DNA of 63,737 nt, the filler included, from Globobulimina sp. (taxonomy: Eukaryota): the NCBI GenBank assembly GCA_003354225.1. It is 16 parts of 16 records of this genome, joined end to end, with 100 filler letters (N's around TTAATTAATTAA, not from the genome) between each part and the next. Parts side by side here need not be neighbours in the genome. Positions count along the whole stretch, not along the records: positions 55,868 to 59,752 come from PIVH01001932.1; 15 more parts are not named here. One strand, written 5' to 3'. Position 1 is the stretch's first letter. Each line of letters starts with the position of its first letter. The notes beneath the pieces are model-generated. The model worked only from the letters and a program-made list of their open reading frames with translations. It was not told where the DNA came from and did no database searches. A program made the translations under genes and the position numbers. Positions 3,896 to 63,737 of the stretch are shown one piece after another.

Positions 3896-3995
3896 NNNNN
3901 NNNNNNNNNNNNNNNNNNNNNNNNNNNNNNNNNNNNNNNTTAATTAATTAANNNNNNNNNNNNNNNNNNNNNNNNNNNNNNNNNNNNNNNNNNNN
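3896..3995. other. Artificial 100-nt contig spacer (first of 15)
   Basis: N-run + TTAATTAATTAA (stops in all six frames) + N-run. Identical spacers at 7891-7990, 11886-11985, 15880-15979, 19872-19971, 23864-23963, 27855-27954, 31846-31945, 35834-35933, 39822-39921, 43810-43909, 47796-47895, 51782-51881, 55768-55867, 59753-59852. Contig lengths never increase, running from 3895 to 3885 bp. Confidence 0.99.
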
Positions 3996-4229
3996 AATTC
4001 TATCAGGCTTTTGCCAGATGGCTCAAGGGCGGAGATTACCATTGAAAGTGCCGGAGATAGCACCGAAGAAACCGACGTGCTTGAACTCATTGCTGACCAC
4101 TGGAATAAAATTGGAATCAAGATATTTGTTCGAGCCTCTCAACGCGAATTGTTCCGGCGAAGGGCACGTTCAGGTGAATCTCAAATGTCGGTATTTCCCG
4201 GTTTCAATACTGGATTGGCCACAAGTCAA
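3996..4229 (+). CDS. Fragment of a bacterial ABC transporter peptide-binding protein (family 5, DppA/OppA-like)
   Basis: IRLLPDGSRAEITIESAGDSTEETDVLELIADHWNKIGIKIFVRASQRELFRRR resembles alphaproteobacterial SBP family 5 C-terminal region. Visibly GC-richer than the sequence downstream. Confidence 0.75.
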
Positions 4230-7200
4230 ATGAAAGTAGAGCACAAAGTTGACAATAGTCACCATACGCAAGTTAAAATATTCATTCTCGCCAAATGTGT
4301 GACTCGTCCAATTGGTTGTTGTGCGTGGATATGTTTTACATTGATATATATGATGATATTTTTATTCATTTTATATTATCCATCCAATACAATGTGTCTA
4401 TCATTTAAATTGAGCGATTTTAAAATAATGGAAAGCAAAATATCAAGTGATTTCTTCCAAAAACAATTGGCCTCCGCAACCAGCTTTAAGTATGGAATTA
4501 CATACTTATTTTTTGTTAAATAATATACTACATTAACTACAAATAATTAAAAGGAAACTTTATGTGAACACAAAAGATGATGTTCAAAGAAGAAGATTAC
4601 AAAACAACAATACAAATGCACAATATACATATTCGACAATATGGACATACGATGACTATATATATCGCAAATGGGCAGCTATTTTTTTGGAAGTATTCTA
4701 TTTCAGTAAAAATAGTGATAATATTTTAACGACAGACTTATTGAATAAAGTTCATCGAATTGAGCAAGGAATGAAATCATGGAATAACTACCATAATCAT
4801 TCATTGTTATTAAGGTGTCGCCAGCCACAATGTTCAGTAAATGCCGATGTATATATTGAATCACCGCCAGGTTCGTTAACCACTTATTTATATCCCCAAA
4901 CGTTTGCTGATTATTATATTTATGATGGTAACGGTGCTGAATTATGCTGTGACATTAAATCAACATTGCGAGAATATGTCAATATTGATATCAGCACAGA
5001 TTTCTTCGATTTCAATTTTGATCTCGTTGAGGTAAAATCAAAATATTTAGCTGCAGTATATCCGTTTGGTTATATGAATATAAATGAAACCAGACAAGAT
5101 TTGATTAATTTTGTCATGAGCTTTGAGAGTTATTTTAACCATCATTTACCAAATGATATTACATCAGATATTGGCATAGCTTATACAGATTCGACGGGAG
5201 CTCTCATTGATAATGAAATATTAACGCATTTCTATTCTGATTTAAATCTAGCGATCATATCGTTGATATTAACATTTATTTTGGCATATTGTTATATTCG
5301 CTCAGTGTTTATAACCGTGTTTGGATTAATTGGCACATTATCTGCCTTCATTCCATGTTTTGTTATCATGAATATTGTGTATGGTGATTCATTTAATTTC
5401 ATTGGTTTAATATCAATTTGGATAATATTAGGCATTGGATCGGACGATATCTTTGTGTTTCTATCATCATATCGCCGTTCCTCAATATATTTATCTGATG
5501 CGGAAAGAATGTCATTTGCATTTCGCGAGGCTGGTTCCGCGATGTTAGTGACCTCGGTCACCACTGCCTTTTCATTTTATAGTTTATGCTTTTCAAAGAT
5601 ATCACCTGTTCCGCAGTTTGGTTTTTTTGTGGGAACCTTAGTGATTTTAAATTATCTTATTGTTATGACATGGTTTCCTGCCATTCTTCAAACATATATT
5701 TGCTTAATTAGATGGTTAAAAAAACACAATTCTTCGCTGGCTAAATGTTCCAAGAAATGTAATGTTATACCAATGTTAGACGCTGATCATGCGATGGATA
5801 ATGATGATGATTTAATTAATGATAATTCAGATATCGATGATGCTGAAACCTGTACACAGTCGCAAATGGAAAATAAAATAACATTTAAAGAATATGAATT
5901 TTCAAAATGCACAAAAATATACTTTATTATTATGAAAAAATATCATTTGGGATTTATATTAATCGGATGTGTATTAATATTATCTGTTTATTTTACTTAT
6001 TACTGCACAAAAGTTTCAATCGGTAATCAAAGTATTAAATTATTGCCGGAGAATACAAATTGGGGACAATTGCAAATTGCAATGAATAGCATTGATATTA
6101 ATAGATATGATTATATTGGCGGTGGTGGTGGAGGCACTGGCTTTGACATGAAAGGAAATATCATAGTAAGCCACACCAAGAAACCAACAAATTCCCCAAC
6201 AACACTCAAACCAACCAAACATCCCACTGTACCCACTGTAGCAACTACGCATAAACCAACAAACCACCCAACTGCACCAATAACAACAACTACAAATGAG
6301 CCAATCCGTAAACCAACATTTACTGCAACCAATACGCCATCATATGCTCCCACTAAAAGACCAACAAATAAGCCACAAACAACCACCAATATGCCAACTT
6401 CTTCGCCCATTCATAGTAAACCAACAATATCTCCAATAATATCATTTGTGACTGATATCCCAACATTATCTCCAATTACTATGATGCCCACATATAGCGG
6501 AGAAACGAAAACAACCACATCCCACACTACGATAAATCCAACACGTTCGCCAATTACAATAACAACTATAGCTAATAAACCAAGCAGTTTACCATCAACA
6601 ACTCCAACGGAAGCACCAACTGTTAAATCCACAGATAAACCCACAAATATACCAACTGGTAGTCCAACAGCACCATCATACCAAACTACATTTTCTCCAA
6701 CTTATTCGTCTCCGTTACAAACAACATTTGTATGCAATAACGATTTAACGCCATTCCAAGAAATACGGATTGGTGATCCATTTTGGTGTAAGGTAGAATT
6801 ATATGATAATAATTACACAGCAACGTTTTTAAAACCATCACAATTAGCAGTTGTATTTGATGGCATTACTGATATTGCCGGCTGCGATACATTCAATTCA
6901 GATTCACCGTATTATATTAATTCTGATGATAGAAAATGGTGTTATATGGACAAAGCATATTGGAATACAAGCGAATATGAACAAATATCCAATTACATTT
7001 ATCAATATAATGCAGCAACATATATACCAACACAACCCCAATGGTTACAAATATCATTGATGATTTATTACGAAAATAAATGGAATTTAATTGAAACTAC
7101 GTATAATTTCACAATTGTTGAATTTTATTCAGATTTTACGAAAGAGAAAGTTAGTATCCATGATTCAATAACAATTTATTTATTATTTGGAACAGAATCA

Positions 7201-7890: not shown

Positions 7891-8091
7891 NNNNNNNNNN
7901 NNNNNNNNNNNNNNNNNNNNNNNNNNNNNNNNNNTTAATTAATTAANNNNNNNNNNNNNNNNNNNNNNNNNNNNNNNNNNNNNNNNNNNNCTATCGACTG
8001 CCTTTGTTTCTCATATCATCGCTAATTCAACTACATTCACATAACAACAAGATGCTATCCAGTATATGGGTGTGAATAATAGAGAGGCGTC

Positions 8092-8739
8092 ATGGGAAGA
8101 AAAATTGCCATTATTGATGAAGAAATCAAGATGAATGCTGATGAGTTCATTACCGGAGGAAACACCCTAAAGCAGACAACACAAATAGCCAAAAAACTCT
8201 CTGCTGACAAGGGGCTTGTTTACTTAAACCTCACTGCAGGCGGCAAACATGAAGATGCCATTAGTATAACCGGCAACCAGTTAAAATGGCCCTATGCTGC
8301 GCCCGGTCCGTGGAAAGATTATCATGGATACAGCGGCCATAGAAGCATGCCGCCGAATTATATGCCTGATGGCGTGAACGTATCTCTGCATGCGGAAATT
8401 AAAAAAGCAGTGGAAACGACAACCAGTGATTTTGATAAGCGAGCCAAGATATTTGCATGCGGAAAAATACCGACACCTGAATTTGCAAACCAAATTTTGG
8501 AAGAAGGAAGTGGTGATTGTGTGAGTGTTTGCAGGGCAATCCTGTGTGATAGTGAATGGCCGAACAAAGGAAAAGATGGCCGTTCAGATGAAATTGTAAA
8601 CTGTATTTATTGTAATCAATGCATGAAAACGTGCGGAGAGGGTTGTACACAGTGCGTTCAATGGAAAGAAAAAGAACATCCCCTGGAGCACTTTGGATTT
8701 CCGCCATTTATAAAAATGAGTGAAAAGAAGAAAAAATGA
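8092..8739 (+). CDS. NADH:flavin oxidoreductase (Old Yellow Enzyme family), C-terminal half only
   Basis: MNADEFITGG, ACGKIPTPEFANQILEEGSGDCVSVCRAILCDSEWPNK, and CIYCNQC Fe-S motif. In-frame stops lie just upstream, so the N-terminal barrel half is missing. Confidence 0.8.
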   Translation: MGRKIAIIDEEIKMNADEFITGGNTLKQTTQIAKKLSADKGLVYLNLTAGGKHEDAISITGNQLKWPYAAPGPWKDYHGYSGHRSMPPNYMPDGVNVSLHAEIKKAVETTTSDFDKRAKIFACGKIPTPEFANQILEEGSGDCVSVCRAILCDSEWPNKGKDGRSDEIVNCIYCNQCMKTCGEGCTQCVQWKEKEHPLEHFGFPPFIKMSEKKKK

Positions 8740-8775
8740 TTTCCCGGAAGAAATAGATAAGTACCAATGTAGTTT

Positions 8776-8813
8776 AAAGGGGCAGGTCTTGTTTGAAGGC
8801 TTGCCCCTTTTTT
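8776..8813 (+). terminator. Rho-independent terminator
   Basis: AAAGGGGCAGGTCTT-GTTTG-AAGGCTTGCCCCTTT stem-loop followed by a T run, 36 nt after the stop at 8739. Confidence 0.85.
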
Positions 8814-8900
8814 ATTCAACCAAAGAAAACCTGGTCCTCAGGGCCAGGTCATAGAAAAAAGGCTCTGCCTATTAAACGTGTACGTTCACGCTTACTCCAG

Positions 8901-9053
8901 CATGGAATACTGGAATGTTGGAATACTGGAATAATGGGATTAAAAGGGTAAAATCGTTATTAGATAATACAAGATAATACAGTTATTAAAATCAGATGTT
9001 TTCCTTATTTAAACCCAATCTTCCAACAATCCATTATTCCATTATTCCATATG
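8901..9053. repeat. Inverted pair of tandem octamer arrays (TGGAATAC-type)
   Basis: Left arm TGGAATAC TGGAATGT TGGAATAC TGGAATAA TGGGATTA. Right arm reverse complement reads TGGAATAA TGGAATAA TGGATTGT TGGAAGAT TGGGTTTA. AT-rich spacer between; lies between convergent genes. Confidence 0.9.
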
Positions 9054-9113
9054 CATGTTTGGTTTTTTTACTAAACGCAAATGGGGTAAAATCAAAGCAG
9101 GGCTGCCCCGGTT

Positions 9114-9557
9114 CTACTTCGGCTCAATCTGAGCTATAACAGGCGCGACACCACAGGTGCCTTCCGGGCTCAGCATGTGCTCCCGGTATTTCTTGAATCT
9201 ACCCTGAAAGTGTTCGTCGAGCTGATTCTGGTCGTATTCCACTGTATGCCAGACCTGGGCTCCCAGTTCTTCAGCCTGCTCCCGTGAGGCTTCCACATCA
9301 TCGACGTTAAAAATAACCCCGATGAGGCCTTCTCCTTTTTCTTCGATGATCTGTTTAACGAAGCTGTCACGGTCGGGAAGAGGCGCGACAAGTTCTATTC
9401 CTGCGTCCCAGCTCATGGCCACTTCAATTCCAAATGCGGCGGCATCTTCGGCATTGGCACCGGAGAATGTGGCGCCGAGAAGTTTGGAGTATACTTCAAT
9501 TCCATTTTGAAGATCATTTACGGCTATCGTGACTCTGTTAACGCCCTTAGGTTTCAT
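9114..9557 (-). CDS. VOC/glyoxalase family protein (methylmalonyl-CoA epimerase-like)
   Basis: VNRVTIAVNDL, IELVAP, GEGLIGVIFNVDDVE motifs. Strong AAGGAGG Shine-Dalgarno upstream. Confidence 0.88.
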   Translation of the reverse strand: MKPKGVNRVTIAVNDLQNGIEVYSKLLGATFSGANAEDAAAFGIEVAMSWDAGIELVAPLPDRDSFVKQIIEEKGEGLIGVIFNVDDVEASREQAEELGAQVWHTVEYDQNQLDEHFQGRFKKYREHMLSPEGTCGVAPVIAQIEPK

Positions 9558-9736
9558 TGTTCCTCCTTTTTGAAAAAATGTGAACCTTTTAATCTGAAAT
9601 GGCTGGCGAAGGTCCAGGTGTATGTCAATATTAAAACCAATAATTCCTGATTATATCGTATTTTGGGGAGCATTTATTGATGTTCAAATAACGCATTTAA
9701 TGCTAATAATTTCTATTAACATTTCACATACCATTT

Positions 9737-9856
9737 ATTTGCAGGGGCGAACCCGTGTGTTCGCCCTGGTGGTTATCCTGAAGAGAGAGTTATTTCGTAT
9801 ATACAAACGTCAAGGCATAACGACCGGGGCAGACACATGGGTCTGCCCCTACAAAT
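9737..9856. repeat. REPIN-like element: inverted pair of GTAG-family REP palindromes
   Basis: TGCAGGGGCGAACCCGTGTGTTCGCCC (9740-9766) and GGGCAGACACATGGGTCTGCCCCTACA (9827-9853; reverse complement TGTAGGGGCAGACCCATGTGTCTGCCC). Each forms a hairpin, with compensatory stem changes between the two. Confidence 0.88.
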
Positions 9857-9917
9857 TTAACATAATCGGATTTATTGGCATTCGATTATTATCCTATCCT
9901 CCCCAAAATTCGTTATA

Positions 9918-9934
9918 ATCAGAATGATTCTCAT
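9918..9934. promoter_or_regulatory. Fur-box-like palindrome
   Basis: ATCAGAATGATTCTCAT is a palindrome with one mismatched pair, resembling TGAGAATnATTCTCA. It lies 17 nt upstream of the -35 box. Confidence 0.45.
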
Positions 9935-9951
9935 ACTGTTTGAATGACAAC

Positions 9952-9980
9952 TTGACAGCTAATCATGATATACGTATAAA
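9952..9980 (+). promoter_or_regulatory. Sigma70-type promoter
   Basis: TTGACA-N17-TATAAA upstream of CDS 10045, which has a GGAG Shine-Dalgarno. Confidence 0.75.
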
Positions 9981-10044
9981 AATGGAATAAAAATTACAAC
10001 CGATAATTGATTTTATTTAAATACACCAGAATGGAGAAAAAGCC

Positions 10045-10854
10045 ATGTTAGACGAAAATACACTGACAAATATTCGTGAAAGCGGGATCGTTCAGGGAAG
10101 TGAAACAGTTGCGGAAAGAAGCAAGGTTCTTAGCGAATCCTGCGGTTTCAGAATGGTGGAAAAGGCTGAATACGCATTGATTGCCAGCTGTTTTAATCCG
10201 TTTATGGAAACAGCGGATATGACATGTTTCCAGAAGCTTCTGGATTATTTTAAGATTGATTACACGCTTTTGCCTAAAGAATATTGCTGCGGCAATATAT
10301 TATTCCGCCAGGCCATTGATGAAAAAAACAATGCGGATATCGAAGCAGGCAATCAGGTCACACCGGAATTTTTTGAGAATAACCTGAAGCAGGCCCGATC
10401 CGCGGGAGCAGGAAAATTGATACTGTATTGTGCCGGATGCGATATGATCTATGAGCGATTCAAAAGCCAGGTCCCTGAAGACATATTATGGTATCCAACA
10501 CTTCTTGCCGAACATTTTAAAGGGGGGCGACTTGACCTGAAAGCGGATTATTATCCCGGCTGTCATTACTATCGCCGAAAGCTGAACAATACAACGCCGG
10601 ACCTGGATGCTGTGCTGAGCATTTTAAACCGTATAGACGGACTGGAACTGAATCATCTTAATCACAGGTTGTGCTGCTCAAAACCGAAACAATCTGAACT
10701 GCTTATTCCTGAAATAAAAAACAGGCTGATTATAACGCCCTGTACCGGGTGTTCGCTGTTCCTCAGACAGGCCCTTCAAGAAAAAGGCGGCTATCGTGTC
10801 GTGTTGCTGCCGGAGTTGCTGTGGGCATCTATCAGCGGTCAGGAGATAGATTAA
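10045..10854 (+). CDS. CCG-domain Fe-S protein (HdrB/HdrD/GlpC-like)
   Basis: EYCCG, YCAGC, YYPGCH, LCCS and TPCTGC motifs indicate two cysteine-rich CCG domains. Confidence 0.82.
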   Translation: MLDENTLTNIRESGIVQGSETVAERSKVLSESCGFRMVEKAEYALIASCFNPFMETADMTCFQKLLDYFKIDYTLLPKEYCCGNILFRQAIDEKNNADIEAGNQVTPEFFENNLKQARSAGAGKLILYCAGCDMIYERFKSQVPEDILWYPTLLAEHFKGGRLDLKADYYPGCHYYRRKLNNTTPDLDAVLSILNRIDGLELNHLNHRLCCSKPKQSELLIPEIKNRLIITPCTGCSLFLRQALQEKGGYRVVLLPELLWASISGQEID

Positions 10855-10984
10855 TAGCTGTTAAGCTGTTGAGCTATTAAGCTGTTAAGCTCTTAAGCTG
10901 ATAAGCAAAAAAATGATAACATCCGTATTTGGCTCAACAGCTTACCAGCTTACCAGCTCAACAGCTAAATAGCTAACAGCTATT
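10853..10984. repeat. Inverted pair of tandem octamer arrays (AGCTGTTA-type)
   Basis: AGCTGTTA AGCTGTTG AGCTATTA AGCTGTTA AGCTCTTA AGCTGATA, then GCTCAACA GCTTACCA GCTTACCA GCTCAACA GCTAAATA GCTAACA. Perfect 11-bp terminal IR AATAGCTGTTA/TAACAGCTATT. Fills the whole stop-to-stop gap. Confidence 0.92.
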
Positions 10985-11659
10985 TTATAACGGTTTTGCC
11001 TCATCCTCGAAATTGCCTGAAATTTCAGATAATTTTTCTATCAACTTCGGGGGATACTTTTCCCTGTACGTTTCCATTATCTCGGTAAGGGGGAGATCCG
11101 CATAATGACCGTAGTCGTGCAAATACTCCATGTGCCTGTTTCCTTTTGCATCATACTCATGAAAAAGGGAATCGGTTTTTCCGTCAAATTCAAGTGGTTT
11201 GATACTGAATTTCTCACATAGCGACAGGTTAAAGGCCGGTGTGGCCTTGACCCATTTCCCGTTCAGAAAAAACTCTGTATAACCGTGGTAATAAAACACT
11301 CCTGTTTCCATGGCTTCTCTGAGTTTATCCGTAGTGACATGGTTCTTCACAGCTGCGTAGCCGAGTCTGCTCGGAATACCGATGGCTCTTCCGCAGGCAG
11401 CCAGCAACAATGCCTTTGTCACACAGTATCCTTTCCTCACGTTGAGAATATAACTCGCCTTGATCAGTTGAGGATCAAGGTTGATATTATAAGGATCATA
11501 ATAAATATCATCACGGACGGCGTAAAAGATGTTTATCGCTTTTTCCATGTCACTTTCAGCATTTCCGGCGGCATTTTGTGAATAGTCTAAGACCGTCGGG
11601 TTATCGCTGTCTATAAAGCCTGTTGCTTCAAGATATTTGCCGAAATCGTTGTCTTCCAT
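10985..11659 (-). CDS. Transglutaminase-like family protein
   Basis: GYCVTKALLLAACGRAIGIPSRL, YHGYTEFFLNGKWVKATPAFN. GGAGGA Shine-Dalgarno. Confidence 0.9.
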   Translation of the reverse strand: MEDNDFGKYLEATGFIDSDNPTVLDYSQNAAGNAESDMEKAINIFYAVRDDIYYDPYNINLDPQLIKASYILNVRKGYCVTKALLLAACGRAIGIPSRLGYAAVKNHVTTDKLREAMETGVFYYHGYTEFFLNGKWVKATPAFNLSLCEKFSIKPLEFDGKTDSLFHEYDAKGNRHMEYLHDYGHYADLPLTEIMETYREKYPPKLIEKLSEISGNFEDEAKPL

Positions 11660-11985
11660 AAAATTCCTCCACCTCTTTTTTTACTGTGTATTATTGCATA
11701 TTTTTAATCCAAATCACAACACTATTGAACTTCATTCAGCAGTTCTCGATGAACAAGAAGTGTTTATCATTTCATTTTTTTGTGGTATTCATATCAAACA
11801 AATATAAAAAAATGAGATCCTGCATCCCTGCATCCAAAAATTACATTCCAAAAAGTCAGGATCTTCCCTTCTAATGCTCTCAATANNNNNNNNNNNNNNN
11901 NNNNNNNNNNNNNNNNNNNNNNNNNNNNNTTAATTAATTAANNNNNNNNNNNNNNNNNNNNNNNNNNNNNNNNNNNNNNNNNNNN

Positions 11986-55611: not shown

Positions 55612-55867
55612 TACTATTATATTTAAATGAACCGCAAATAACTATCTATTGTTTGTCTTTTGGCCATATTCCGCCTACAGTATCAATCGCATATTCCAAT
55701 ATATACTAATTTGTGCAAGACGAAATATGAGCCAAAATTCTTAAGTAATATTAGGAAAATTATTTTCNNNNNNNNNNNNNNNNNNNNNNNNNNNNNNNNN
55801 NNNNNNNNNNNTTAATTAATTAANNNNNNNNNNNNNNNNNNNNNNNNNNNNNNNNNNNNNNNNNNNN

Positions 55868-56098
55868 TTAGGTGTTGAACGAGGTATAATTGCATGGTCT
55901 GGTCGTTGGAAATTAAGAGATTGCTTTTATATATATGTAAATTACTCGGAAGGGGATATGATGAGTCTTTCGTATATTTATTTCAATGCTAAACAAGACA
56001 TTAAGTTTCAATATAATAAATTATTTGATTTTGATAAAGAAGAAGCAGATTATTATTTAGATCATTTTCATAATTCAATTAAATCATTAACTATATAA
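55868..56098 (+). CDS. Tyrosine recombinase C-terminus, 5'-partial (absent from ORF track)
   Basis: LGVERGIIAWSGRWKLRDCFYIYV matches the GxxxxxIxxxGRWxSxxxxxY box II of DIRS/phage-integrase YRs. Stop at 56096-56098. Confidence 0.78.
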   Translation, partial: LGVERGIIAWSGRWKLRDCFYIYVNYSEGDMMSLSYIYFNAKQDIKFQYNKLFDFDKEEADYYLDHFHNSIKSLTI

Positions 56099-56559
56099 TC
56101 AATATTATACGGAAGGGGTTTTATTATTTTATTTGTTTATTTCAAGTATGTTATTTTATATTTGTTGTTATGTTGTTTGGTATTTGTTATTAGGTATAAT
56201 AAATTATAATATAATATTTCCCCCCGTTGTTCACAGTGATTATACTTTCAAATCTTATCTCATCATATCCTAAACACACACATAGATATATTATATATTA
56301 TTTATATATTGATTGGATAACAAACAATCAAAAGTTTTGACTGTATTTATAATTAAGGAATAAGATTAAAACACTATGTTGTATTCGTGGAACAAGGGTT
56401 TTGATTGGTGACCTAATTTAATTCTTATTTATATTTCTATATTATTATCTTACTTCAGTTTTTATCTTACTTCAGTTTTTATTTAAGTCTTTAAAATTGT
56501 TTTGTTTCCTTGCATACGTAAGACACCCAAACCTATATAGAATTAATTATATTATCACT

Positions 56560-59434
56560 ATGTCCTTTCACTTCAATGTTAGCAATGCATTAAATGGAGT
56601 TAACATGAAACAAGCAACAGCATTAAGAATAGTTAAAATGACCACACCGCCGAGCACTCTTAGCAGCACAGAACCTGATGCAACAATTTCGAATCGTCTC
56701 ATTAATCAATATGATGCAATCAATTTAGGTTTTACATTCATTAAACATACAAGACCCAAAGTAAAGAATGATCCGACAAAAGGCCTTGATATTGGCTTTA
56801 CAATCGCAAAAAATGGTGATTCAACGCAAGAATTTCGTGAATTACGTTTATTAACAAGCAATTTATTAATCGTGGATGATCAATCTGATCCGCTATGGAC
56901 AAGAACCGATGCGAATCATCGCGCATTTCCGCAATCCTCAGACGATTATAAGATGAAATTTGTGCGAAGAATTAAAGAACAATCAATCAATATTATGACA
57001 TCAGAATTAGTAAATTATTTAACACAGCACACATATGCAACATTACAAGTCATTGAAACCTTATTAACCGCAACGAGAGGAACGCCGAATAATTATAATG
57101 AAGAACAAGTATTAGAATTCACAAAAGCATCCCAAACGTTCGTTCAATTTAATCAATTCGTGGTCGATGCAAATAAAAATAATAGCACTTACAAGAATAC
57201 GGCGAGTCGCAAATTATATGTTTATTATGGATTAACAGAAACTACGATGGCATTCAAAGCAATAAACTTTAAACCAGATTTTAAAAATATTGATGCATTA
57301 ATTGCTGAATTTATTGAGCCTCTTAACAAAGAGCAAGAATATAATTTATATAAAGAGAAGATTTTATCATCGTTTCCAAAACAAAAAGACAACAACAACA
57401 ACACCAATAATAACAATAATAATACACAGTCAACGACGAGTAACAATAATCAAAACAATGCATGGTTTAATAATTTAGATCAAGTCCATAACGGAGGTGC
57501 GGGTGCAGGGAACAACAAAACTCCGTCGTTATTAGAAAAATTAAATAAAGGCAATAAACAACGTGAATTGGCAGAAAACATTAGCAGTCAAAGGAGCGTC
57601 GATCGTAATCTCAATGTAAATGTAAAAAATGATCGTTTCAATTCGAATTTAATTAATAATGCAAATAATGTGCAAGAAAGTGTCCGTAATGACATCAAAA
57701 CTAACAACAAAGCAGCATTAGTCTCAGGATTAACATTCATGCATCCTGGCATTGAGGATGATGATGATATAAATTTTACAGAATTAATCAACAAATATGG
57801 TGGTAACCATGTAACGGATGCTGACATTCGTCAATCTTTGATGAAGAGTATGTGTCTCTTCTTTTCGTATACTCTGTCTTTTCTGTCCGTAAATATGTAT
57901 TGTTGAAAATATTTTCGTTTTTGGTGTGCATTTTTAGTATCTGACAGTTGTTTAAATATGTTCAACTTTTCTATATTTGTTGTATACGCAAACCTTGTTT
58001 TATACAATAAAAGTAAAAAACTGTCAAAGTAAAACATTACTAAAGTGAATATTTTAAAAAAACCCCTCCCTTATTCCTCAACAAACTTTAGATTATTATG
58101 ATTTTATGGAGTATAAGAAGGATCAAAATGAATTAAGTAATCAAATTAATGGCAATCTATCAAAAAAGAAACGCACTTCGGCACAAATTGCATATTATCG
58201 TTTATGTACAACAGGAGGTGCTCCTATCATTAATATATTACGTTATTTTGCATTAATTGGTGAAATAAATTGGTCGCATAAACACAACAACATTGATGCA
58301 GCAATTAGTAGTTTTATGAAAGAAGATAATGCAACATATCAATGTGCATTAATGATTTCAACGTCATTATCAGAATTAAGTGAAATTCATCGAAATAAAG
58401 AAGCTGCAAAAGATAAACAATTAGCCGCAACTATTCAGAGTGCATATTTACACATTGCGAGCCTGCAATGGATGGCATTCGCAAAATTTATGCAAAAAGA
58501 ATTAGCATTGATATTAAAAGGAGAGGAAGGTTTGAAAGCGTTGAACCACTTTCTATTGAAAAGAAGGAAAGAAATTTTAGATCGAGGCAGCGTCGCTGGC
58601 ACTGATTTAAGTGAAAGGAACACATTAAACGAATGGAAATTATCTCTCCTATCAACAGAACATTACAATAGCAAAGCAACGAGATTATTCAATGCAAATT
58701 TATCAAATACACAGTCAATTCCCGCCAACAACACTCCAACACAAAAACCGTATATTCCAAGACGTCAACCAAGATATCGTGGAGGCAGAGGTCGTAATGG
58801 CTATGGTGGTGGACACAGAGGTGGTCCAAGAGGTGGTTTTCGAGGTCATCGTGGTGGAGGTCGTGGTGGCTACGGTGGTGGACACAGAGGTGGTCCAAGA
58901 GGTGGTTTTCGAGGTCATCGTGGTGGTGGTTATCGAGGCCATAATGCAAGAGGTAACAGAGGCGGATATCGCGGTGGATATCAAGGTAATAATCAACATC
59001 AATACAATCAAAATGTGAATAACAATGGTAATGATTATCAGCAGTCGCAATATGAACAAAATTATCAACAATCTCCGCATCAACAACAACGAAATAACTA
59101 TCAACCACCGGCAAAAAGAGGTAAATTCAATCAAAGTGGATATAATCAAAACAATTCTGGTTATCAACAAAATAATAATCAACAAATTATGAAAAAAGAA
59201 GTAAACACTCAAAAGATGCAATGTTACCATGTAAGAAATGGCATACTTTATGGTGGACCAGAATTGGTTCAATATATTTGTGCGTATCACGAAAAAGGCA
59301 GATGTTTCTATAGTCAATGTCATGAAAGATGCGATTGGCATCATATGTGCAGATTTTGTTTTGCAATTGATCGACATATCGGTGATAGATGCGATAGTCG
59401 AGGAAGTGGAAGTGTTTATGGTTACGGCAGATAA
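56560..59434 (+). CDS. Gag-like protein with RGG repeats and C-terminal zinc fingers; intron 57848-58091
   Basis: A 244-nt GTATGT...TTTAG intron joins ORFs 56497 and 58106 in frame (LMKN/YYDFM). Ends CAYHEKGRC...CDWHHMCRFC...HIGDRC. Confidence 0.72.
58799..58930 (+). repeat. 69-nt coding tandem duplication (RGG box)
   Basis: GYGGGHRGGPRGGFRGHRGGG occurs twice with near-identical DNA. Confidence 0.9.
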
Positions 59435-59852
59435 AGATATTGCATTATATATATTTCATCATTGACAGTTATAATTTTACACTATTATTTTCTTTTTATA
59501 TTATATATTTGCAGTGTATATATATATTCTATTATAGTTATTAGATTTATTTATTTATTTTATTTGTGGATATTATTTGATTTGTGGTCTATTAATTGAT
59601 TTGTTGACATTTTAATATATATTCAAATTTATTTATTTTATCAATTAATAATCGCTGGGGAGGGGTAAATTGTATGTCACGCATTTTTTTACTAATATAT
59701 AATATATATATTATTACTAATATATATATTATAACTAATATATATATTATATNNNNNNNNNNNNNNNNNNNNNNNNNNNNNNNNNNNNNNNNNNNNTTAA
59801 TTAATTAANNNNNNNNNNNNNNNNNNNNNNNNNNNNNNNNNNNNNNNNNNNN

Positions 59853-61714: not shown

Positions 61715-63373
61715 TCAACATTCTGCAAGTTGATCAAGTTTGGCAATAAATTCGTCATCCCATTCATCATCAAAATCAAATTGAAATTCATCTGATTTAT
61801 CATCATCATCATTAATCTTTTGCCTTTTGGCATTAATTGGTGATATTATCTCTTTTTCAGCAGCATCAATATCATCAGAAAATAATTGAATTAAATCTCT
61901 TTTCAATGATTTGTTTGAATTTGATTTATTTGGCACATTATCCGATTCCGATGTTATTGATATTGGAGTTTTAAATAAAATATTTTCAATTAACGGGGTT
62001 GTATTTTTATTCTCTTTCTCTTCCATTTCAAATAAATATGCGGGGATATGAATTGGTGGCGATATAAAACGTTTGCAATCCGGATCAAAACATTTTTGTT
62101 GAACAATTTTCTGTTTACATTTTACTTGAAAATATATACAATTACTTTTATGACATCGTGCGATATTCATACAAAATCTATTCTTTTCCACTGAATACAA
62201 AATGCATGATATTTCTTTCAATAATGTCCATTTTGTAATTTTACCTTCATTTCTTTCGCCATCATATAATACATTCTCACAATTTATATCTTTTGGTATT
62301 TTATTCATTGTATCAATCCATGGACACGTTGCACGACACCAATTATTTACAATTCCTTTCATCCAATCATCTAACAATGGATATGGCGATGATTCTAAAT
62401 TTATATTATGATTATTGTGATTATATGACAATGACTTGCAATATGAATAGAAGTCTCCTTCGAATTGTATAATTTGCGTATTTTCATCAATATCAACAGC
62501 ACAAATTAATGTATCTAAAAAATCAATAAATTTCTGTTTAAATGTTGGTTTGTGACAACAATGCGATTTTATTTTCCTATTTTGATTGGCTGCATAGCCC
62601 AAATATGTACTATTACAGTTACCACTGCTACTGTTATTATGTATATTTTTTAATTTTGATGAATGAATAAGTCGAAAACATCGGTTTTTTGTATATACGG
62701 CTTCATCAATAAATAATATCCGATTACAATCTGCGCAATTTTGCGGATCCATGTTATAAATAAATAACTGATCAATTTCTGAATAATGACGCAATCCTTT
62801 TTTACTTTTACTAATTTCTCTCATATCATCACACATTTTGCGCACAAATATGCCACATTGCTGATTATTTTTAAACACTGCGTTTGTTGGAAATATTATA
62901 ATTAAATGACGTGAAAATTTAACATTTGTCGATGACTCTAAATCAATAATATCCGATTTGGTTATTGTTATATTTAAGTGTTTCAAAATATATTCTATTA
63001 AAAAATTGATAAATATATTCATTAATTTTTGTCCATTTGTATTTTTATTATATTCTATTTTATATTCAATATCGAAATATAATTTACATTTAAATCCTTG
63101 TCGAATCACTTCATAATAACATCTATCTTTGGCTTTCATTGATTTATATCTTTTAAAAAAATGAATATAATTTGTGACTAAATAATTTCTTTTACCGTAT
63201 GCATTATCATAATAGATTTCTTTTGCGAATATTTGTAAGTTTTGATTAAATAATTTTTTTCGAAGATTAGACATTTCAAATGCTTGCAATTGTGTATTAA
63301 ATACCGACCATATCGGTACAGAATGTCGACACTCAAATATATCCAATTCTATTATTTTGTATCGGATTGTCAT
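61715..63373 (-). CDS. PRIMPOL: DNA-directed primase/polymerase PrimPol
   Basis: YYEVI...CKLYFDIE (motif I), KFSRHLI (motif II), FIDEAVYTKNRCFRL (motif III), UL52-type zinc finger RFCMNIARCHKSN...QKCFDPDC, acidic tail. Start uncertain. Confidence 0.93.
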   Translation of the reverse strand: MTIRYKIIELDIFECRHSVPIWSVFNTQLQAFEMSNLRKKLFNQNLQIFAKEIYYDNAYGKRNYLVTNYIHFFKRYKSMKAKDRCYYEVIRQGFKCKLYFDIEYKIEYNKNTNGQKLMNIFINFLIEYILKHLNITITKSDIIDLESSTNVKFSRHLIIIFPTNAVFKNNQQCGIFVRKMCDDMREISKSKKGLRHYSEIDQLFIYNMDPQNCADCNRILFIDEAVYTKNRCFRLIHSSKLKNIHNNSSSGNCNSTYLGYAANQNRKIKSHCCHKPTFKQKFIDFLDTLICAVDIDENTQIIQFEGDFYSYCKSLSYNHNNHNINLESSPYPLLDDWMKGIVNNWCRATCPWIDTMNKIPKDINCENVLYDGERNEGKITKWTLLKEISCILYSVEKNRFCMNIARCHKSNCIYFQVKCKQKIVQQKCFDPDCKRFISPPIHIPAYLFEMEEKENKNTTPLIENILFKTPISITSESDNVPNKSNSNKSLKRDLIQLFSDDIDAAEKEIISPINAKRQKINDDDDKSDEFQFDFDDEWDDEFIAKLDQLAEC

Positions 63374-63737
63374 GATTAATCTATTAAATATACACAATTA
63401 AACAAACGTACGTTGTTTGACTAACGGTGACTCCATATCCATGATCAAAACTAGTATTTTCAAAAAACAGTATGAATGAATGAATTAGTGTGCTCTTCGG
63501 ACCTATTCCACAAAAAAGCACCTCGAGAATTAGCACCACCACAAAAAGTATATACTCTGTTTCATCATAGAAATGAATGGTAATGAAAAAATGACCAATG
63601 ACAGGCATCATAATAATCCATAATATCCAAAATATTATCTCTCCGATGGTTTACTAAGATTAAACTGTATATTCATTGCATGACTGCATGTATGATATTG
63701 AGAACAATCAATTTTGAGCTAAATTTAATACTGCGAA

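Follow-up and report, generated by a model that had tools for sequence, protein, structure and literature searches.

Positions 55868–59752 of the DNA analysed here, a 63,737-base window from the Globobulimina sp. assembly GCA_003354225.1, are exactly one contig of 3885 bp (PIVH01001932.1), on which the end of a tyrosine recombinase (YR) gene is followed, on the same strand, by a zinc-finger gene that has two exons and resembles gag in some of its features. The reading that we favour, with modest confidence, is that this contig is a fragment of a Ngaro-like YR retroelement of ordinary gene order, seen across its own terminal repeats. In such an element, lodged in an AT-rich protist genome, the order would be gag, then reverse transcriptase (RT) with RNase H, then YR. 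The contig would begin inside YR, the last gene, pass through its 3′ non-coding tail, enter a high-copy terminal repeat and emerge in the 5′ part of the element, at the two-exon gag-like gene, only to break in a TA repeat before RT could appear. Two routes could lead to such a junction: a short-read assembler may have walked from terminal repeat B1 through A into the 5′ interior instead of from B1 through A2 to B2, or two true copies may lie head to tail. Either way, the downstream gene would be the gag of the same element family, RT would lie beyond the contig, and the repeat in the spacer would be the A/B terminal repeat.

The window itself is not one continuous locus. It comprises 16 contigs of 3885–3895 bp in descending order of size, split by 15 identical linkers of the form N44-TTAATTAATTAA-N44 (found by a scan for N-runs at 3896–3995, 7891–7990, and so on to 59753–59852), and a linker lies on either side of the contig studied. 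An earlier note on this DNA had the coordinates right: the recombinase stop ends at 56098, the gag-like ATG follows at 56560 after 461 nt, and the last stop is succeeded by 318 nt of AT-rich DNA with a TA-type repeat at its end. It went on to present the recombinase lying upstream, and the lack of an RT after gag, as features of the element. Since 55868 and 59752 are contig ends abutting linkers, both statements describe where the contig stops and not how the element is built, and the new, permuted RT–YR–gag order that the note proposed likewise depends on where a contig of 3885 bp happens to begin and end. A true permuted YR retroelement is in our view very improbable. What speaks for it is the order on this contig, together with the variation in domain order and repeat layout among YR elements described in PMC4157794 (this and the other papers cited by PMC number are represented here by excerpts); against that, the order has not been seen within one element, the junction is to be expected from any A1…B1A2B2 element in tandem, in a circle or along an assembly path, and a repeat sits exactly in the spacer. 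Because these three routes explain the order, a permuted element is not needed. More generally, the edge gene order in windows of concatenated short contigs says nothing about element structure.

At the left edge, a reading frame already open at 55868, where the contig starts, continues to a TAA at 56096–56098 and encodes 76 residues, which by themselves have no Pfam match. Their closest recombinase relative, P0004, is 74% identical to the fragment (E 1.8e-30) and came from a word-indexed search of proteins longer than it. The P0004 tail, used as query in its turn, led to P0034, which matches the Pfam family PF00589 (Phage_integrase) at 35.3 bits over a cut-off of 27.1 (E 1.2e-8; profile positions 54–168 of 172) and aligns with the fragment through its residues 169–228 (48% identity over 64 columns, E 3e-18); the membership of the fragment in Phage_integrase is reached through this relative and not directly. 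G-R-W and Y-I-Y-V are invariant in all three aligned sequences (the fragment, P0004 and P0034), and both relatives carry H-S-L-R-K-G-F-A some 20 residues ahead of the point where the contig starts. With these invariant motifs, and with the H-S-L-R of its relatives, the fragment is, as judged from its sequence, the end of a tyrosine recombinase, comprising the H/W position, the region of the catalytic tyrosine and a family-specific tail of about 50 residues. Of the R-H-R-Y tetrad, the contig carries the last part only, G-R-W and Y-I-Y, and no box I arginine is seen in the window. The recombinase C-terminus that the earlier note had recognized from G-R-W…Y is thereby borne out by way of P0034, although not by the fragment alone.

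All eukaryotic YRs known at the time of PMC3212892 were encoded by mobile elements and, by the excerpts of the same paper, Crypton YRs match DUF3504 whereas those of DIRS and Ngaro elements do not; P0034 has no DUF3504 match at E ≤ 1. Its neighbours in the Atlas are small, YR-only eukaryotic Phage_integrase proteins, among them one DUF3504-bearing set at rank 16, a placement that serves as no more than a lead and cannot tell a retroelement from a Crypton. A sequence search of the PDB with P0034 returned no match at E ≤ 1.

P0004 is encoded on a 2823-bp contig (L001), the sole find of the YR alignment search in metagenome contigs; the search of genome contigs and viral contigs gave no related locus. 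The first ~2.3 kb of L001 have a GC content of 50–56% and encode bacterial-type proteins (a transporter-like and a URO-D-like open reading frame, ORF), and the last ~0.45 kb, at 23–33% GC, carry the recombinase tail, which is in frame with the bacterial part by accident. L001 is a proven chimera of bacterial DNA fused to an AT-rich YR tail. Its + strand has, over the whole length, an unusually strong G-over-C bias (skew 0.3–0.6) and a T-over-A bias. Beyond the stop codon, L001 and the window stay similar in DNA for about 135 nt more, up to the end of L001 at about 56235 of the window, and the 461-nt spacer therefore begins with DNA of the element that bears the recombinase.

For the remainder of the spacer, which spans the interval between the TAA and the ATG, depth comes from the Logan contigs and unitigs of a single public run, the only one of three listed runs that contains the stretch, and possibly the source sample, no RNA run being listed as containing it; the pieces listed are a minimum, 160 further ones lying beside them. 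Summed depth is 5–16 over the genes, about 84 in 56258–56517 and 5168 in 59638–59752, so deep a TA repeat being a typical place for an assembly to break. The spacer contains a 17-nt tandem repeat at 56445–56482. Among the pieces listed, unitigs end at 56393 and resume at 56480, leaving 56394–56479 unbridged, and the repeat between these breaks is about ten times deeper than its flanks. Loose ends occur at 56367 and 56402, one variant skips 56186–56363, and one contig turns from 56509 back to 56116 by way of 19 other letters, a back-joint whose resemblance to an A2-to-B2 path is a hint of split terminal repeats. Besides the 17-nt tandem, a repeat scan within the contig, which would hold only part of the element, found neither long direct or inverted repeats nor a B…A…B repeat, and the inverted-repeat scan yielded short AT-rich pairs only (72–89% complementarity). 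The earlier note had proposed that its idea would fall if read pairs failed to span 56098–56560; the listed unitigs of the one run break within that interval and 160 more pieces exist, which leaves the idea neither upheld nor refuted on this point.

From left to right, the contig thus presents the YR tail, then a conserved non-coding stretch of about 135 nt, a repeat of high copy number and, 51 nt after the back-joint point at 56509, the gene. By analogy with known elements, an order of YR, B, A and gag would be expected alike from a head-to-tail pair, from a circle, or from an assembly that leaves A2 through the exit of A1, and the data would fit all three. The layout of Ngaro elements is A1-[ORFs]-B1A2B2 (PMC8547959), Ngaro and VIPER have internal repeats downstream of the YR (PMC4157794), and VIPER and TATE pair a 5′ A1 with a 3′ B1-A2-B2, TATE having been found in tandem (PMC6681497). 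Two explanations offered in the earlier note, a head-to-tail tandem and a circle junction, would indeed give the junction observed, but an assembly path gives the same sequence. The second of them, a captured junction of an extrachromosomal circular replication intermediate, we regard as highly improbable. Circular double-stranded intermediates belong to the classical model of YR retroelements (PMC7192593), and the junction sequence expected of them looks like this one; in the excerpts of that same paper, however, DIRS-1's extrachromosomal cDNA is mostly linear and single-stranded and its junction is not amplifiable, which suggests by analogy that circles make up no more than a minor species, and the depth over the genes (about 5–15) is no higher than that of ordinary sequence in the one run.

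The gene beyond the spacer is the same-strand zinc-finger gene with gag-like features that the earlier note had described, except that it is not one ORF. What had been called gag is two ORFs in different frames, ORF1 at 56560–57906 and ORF2 at 58106–59434, and for this reason the single-gene reading needs an intron. Removal of the one proposed in Table 1 joins the two frames into 876 codons. A Nonionella protein of 733 residues, P0033, contains ORF1-like and ORF2-like parts in one frame: ORF1 residues 356–400 match it with E 1e-5, ORF2 residues 18–128 with E 5e-13, and the spliced model aligns with it in one BLASTP segment (residues 356–562 against 247–455, 29% identity, E 1e-18) that crosses the exon junction at residue 429/430. 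Two further proteins, P0011 and P0032, have the same sequence as P0033 downstream of one point and an unrelated, hydrophobic N-terminus of 45 residues upstream of it. This point of divergence aligns within about ten residues of the exon junction, in a gapped stretch, and the two proteins are apparently intron-retaining forms. Splicing of ORF1 to ORF2 is in this way supported, as far as sequence comparison goes, by the transcript of a relative (P0033) and not by RNA of Globobulimina sp. As a baseline for the splice signals, a CD36-like gene in the window was inspected and showed more than one candidate GT-AG pair, among them one with the same AAG|GTATGT donor; this comparison is given no weight here.

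The ATG of ORF2 is the position at which P0005 and P0009 start, so that a stand-alone ORF2 product is possible besides the spliced protein. If the contig does come from a Ngaro-like element, unspliced RNA could yield ORF1 alone and serve as the copying template, and spliced RNA could yield the 876-aa ORF1–ORF2 protein, the RGG region and CCCH + CCHC module of which may bind nucleic acid. It is a tentative idea, to which we give less than even confidence, that the gene is the gag of a foraminiferal YR family that keeps an intron in a conserved place, with the unspliced RNA acting as genome and as message for ORF1 and with splicing fusing ORF1 to the CCCH + CCHC domain, in a retrovirus-like control of the ratio between products. 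ORF1 itself had no Pfam family, no homologue among near-length proteins and no Atlas match, and its AlphaFold model was unusable (mean predicted local distance difference test score, pLDDT, of 31).

ORF2 can be placed, by its relatives, in a diverged multicopy family. A search among 1.84 billion representatives returned 27 proteins at E ≤ 0.001, 15 of which were limited to a low-complexity stretch (query residues 125–363) and were left out; among the other 12, which were aligned, the N-terminal domain is present in eight and the Cys/His module in nine. Half of these (6/12) are NCBI proteins on short contigs. The ten relatives that were looked up comprise seven NCBI proteins on contigs of 822–4296 bp (the six of the ORF2 family and P0004), one from JGI/IMG and two from EukProt, the names of the latter denoting foraminiferal transcriptomes of Globobulimina and Bolivina. 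The cluster of the Bolivina protein (P0011) also holds the two Nonionella proteins (P0032 and P0033). These Bolivina and Nonionella proteins, in one 90%-identity cluster, have identical stretches, which suggests cross-contamination between the data sets or a shared source of very recent date, so that the two genera do not provide two separate lines of support.

The AlphaFold model of ORF2, built on a 13-row alignment, has an all-helical domain at residues 20–200 (pLDDT ~90), a disordered RGG/N/Q-rich region at 209–364 and a confident small Cys/His domain at 367–435. In the Cys/His module, C392, C400, H406, C409, H412, H413, C415, C418, H424 and C429 are invariant in six of six aligned sequences, the pattern being a CCCH-type site followed by C415-x2-C418-x5-H424-x4-C429. 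As modelled, a helical domain succeeded by a basic RGG linker and then by a CCHC-like knuckle fits the logic of a nucleocapsid-like protein, and gag-like is a reasonable label for ORF2; the gag-like ORFs of YR elements are defined largely by position (PMC6681497), and zinc fingers occur in only some YR-element groups (PMC4157794). The CCCH/CCHC fingers announced in the earlier note are therefore present as an invariant pattern, whereas the term "DIRS-type" attached to them is a tentative label. With the whole 442-aa model as query, Foldseek found no match in pdb or BFVD at E ≤ 0.001, and a wide VIA-align search gave no chain at Z ≥ 5, the best (Z 4.7) being generic helical hairpins.

Comparison with known systems brings out likenesses and differences alike. 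As in Ngaro elements (e.g., those of Cafeteria burkhardae, PMC8547959), a YR with H-x-x-R and a catalytic tyrosine would be the last gene, non-coding repeats may come directly after it, and a poorly conserved gag-like first gene would be defined mainly by position; unlike in Ngaro, split direct repeats are only hinted at here, the contig carries no RT or RNase H, and the gag-like gene, with 876 codons after splicing, is a long one, with an intron and a CCCH + C-x2-C-x5-H-x4-C module. VIPER and TATE of kinetoplastids (PMC6681497) would share the A1 / B1-A2-B2 layout, TATE tandems give junctions of the YR side to the gag side, and some gag-like proteins of VIPER have a CCHC box. In the excerpts of that paper, however, the YR is placed before RT and the CCHC box has the retroviral x4 spacing, and the likeness would be one of layout. 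Cryptons (PMC3212892) offer YR-only proteins of eukaryotes, a few hundred residues in length and frequently encoded with introns; they differ in having neither long terminal repeats (LTRs) nor gag and in YRs that match DUF3504, as P0034 does not, other Crypton groups being possible. The hallmarks of DIRS1-like elements are inverted terminal repeats with an internal complementary region and a methyltransferase domain, which Ngaro elements lack, to be set beside what is here a partial contig. Retroviral and LTR-element Gag proteins share the helical domain, the basic region and the Cys-His knuckle, as well as the possible need for unspliced genomic RNA beside spliced mRNA; ORF2 departs from them in its x5 instead of x4 spacing, in the extra CCCH site before the knuckle, and in having no detected capsid fold or Pfam family.

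Several observations weigh against the reading of the contig as an ordinary Ngaro-like element. Neither RT nor RNase H is found on the contig, which is partial with contig ends at both edges; in the window's other 15 contigs, 38 long ORFs gave no match to an RT or YR family; and the ORF2-family alignment search of genome contigs and viral contigs gave no locus tying the family to RT or YR. A single contig, of depth 3.3, carries the back-joint, 19 of its letters there being unmatched, and the depth of the spacer may in part stem from low-complexity AT sequence. The ORF2 knuckle exceeds the retroviral C-x2-C-x4-H-x4-C by one residue, and ORF2 matched no Pfam gag, CCCH, CCHC or zinc-knuckle family at E ≤ 10 beyond noise. 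Furthermore, since L001, of the same record set, is a proven chimera, the join inside the contig studied here could be false as well.

Such a false join, or else a chance neighbourhood, is the substance of an alternative that we judge unlikely, though well short of negligible: the YR tail would come from a YR element, either a remnant of Ngaro-like type or a DNA transposon akin to Cryptons, the gene would be a lineage-specific multicopy RNA-binding zinc-finger gene and no gag, and the two would have been brought together by insertion or by mis-assembly through a dispersed repeat. The unbridged repeat at 56394–56479, among the pieces listed, and the chimeric nature of the related contig L001 both speak for it, as does the gene itself, which has an intron and a counterpart that a foraminiferal transcriptome shows to be expressed as an ORF of 733 aa standing alone, and for whose ORF2 neither a gag family nor a capsid fold was detected. 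The Atlas clusters nearest to P0034, YR-only and with DUF3504 in one set, point the same way as a lead only, but P0034 itself is without a DUF3504 match at E ≤ 1. Also against this alternative stand the shared strand of YR tail and gene and the mere 461 nt between them, together with an ORF2 family that is diverged, multicopy and spread over many short contigs and whose domain logic suits a nucleocapsid-type protein. On balance, the link of the zinc-finger gene to a retroelement is plausible, and the Ngaro-like element of ordinary order stays our preferred reading.

Table 1. Features of the contig and of the linkers that bound it (window positions)
Feature	Positions	Strand	Remarks
Artificial linker N44-TTAATTAATTAA-N44	55768–55867	.	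Joins contigs; non-biological
Tyrosine recombinase, C-terminal 76 codons + stop	55868–56098	+	Cut at contig start; G-R-W, Y-I-Y, ~50-aa tail
3′ non-coding tail of the recombinase-bearing element	56099–56235	+	DNA conservation with L001
High-copy repeat zone, candidate terminal (A/B) repeat	56258–56517	.	Depth ~84 versus 5–16 beside it
Exon 1 (ORF1, 429 codons + 1 base)	56560–57847	+	Unspliced reading continues to stop at 57904–57906
Proposed spliceosomal intron, phase 1	57848–58091	+	244 nt, 28% GC; GTATGT...TTTAG; stops in all three frames
Exon 2, gag-like ORF2	58092–59434	+	Own ATG at 58106; last stop 59432–59434
ORF2 helical domain	~58163–58705	+	
Tandem repeat in the ORF2 RGG/N/Q linker	58788–58930	+	
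ORF2 CCCH + CCHC zinc module	~59279–59392	+	
AT-rich tail	59435–59752	.	318 nt; TA-type simple repeat at its end (59695–59752); contig breaks there
Artificial linker	59753–59852	.	Leads to next, unrelated contig; N-run scan

Some further features of the contig and its surroundings deserve mention. The repeat in the ORF2 linker has a 69-nt unit present in 2.1 copies with 94% matches and is the source of the RGG/GGHRGGPRGGFRGH block in ORF2, and the apparent ORFs on the – strand over 58689–59377 merely shadow this low-complexity sequence. Three places have a short run of G with T-rich text behind it (GGAAGGGGTTTTATT-like): 56111–56130 just after the recombinase stop, 58057–58074 (complement) in the intron and 59654–59666 in the tail after ORF2; this GGAAGGGGTTTTATT-like text may be a shared 3′-end signal or may be due to chance. 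The other 15 contigs of the window are unrelated to the one studied, with ordinary eukaryotic genes and a few bacterial-looking ones, and hold no copy of the YR tail, ORF1 or ORF2 proteins. Window positions 7991–11885 and 3996–4520 have a GC content of 40–43% or bacterial-type domains (a CCG cysteine-rich domain, a transglutaminase core and a weak SBP_bac_5 match) amid AT-rich eukaryotic contigs, which suggests an admixture of bacterial contigs in the assembly. On the next contig, an ORF of 560 aa at 61718–63397 (– strand) has a Herpes_UL52/UL70 primase zinc-motif match (E 1.9e-6) and the look of a PrimPol-type primase-polymerase.

What the contig means depends in part on which reading is true. 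If it is the ordinary one, the finding is mainly a caution, in that elements with terminal direct repeats routinely yield contigs that show a 3′-to-5′ "junction". Beyond this, YR elements and an unnamed gag-like protein family, with a helical domain, an RGG linker and CCCH + CCHC fingers, exist in Foraminifera, a lineage for which we know of almost no transposon annotation; the search among the 1.84 billion representatives gave this family 12 matches beyond low complexity. Neither a foraminiferal YR element nor a spliced Ngaro gag was found in the literature, a weak negative given that most subscription papers, including the reviews by Goodwin, Poulter and Butler, lay outside the search. The most interesting lead in our view is not the gene order but the spliced gag-like gene with transcript support from a relative, the first hint at the transcript level of splicing in a gene of this kind. 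Should it prove to be a true retroelement gag, an intron kept through reverse transcription would bear on how such elements separate their genomic RNA from their mRNA.

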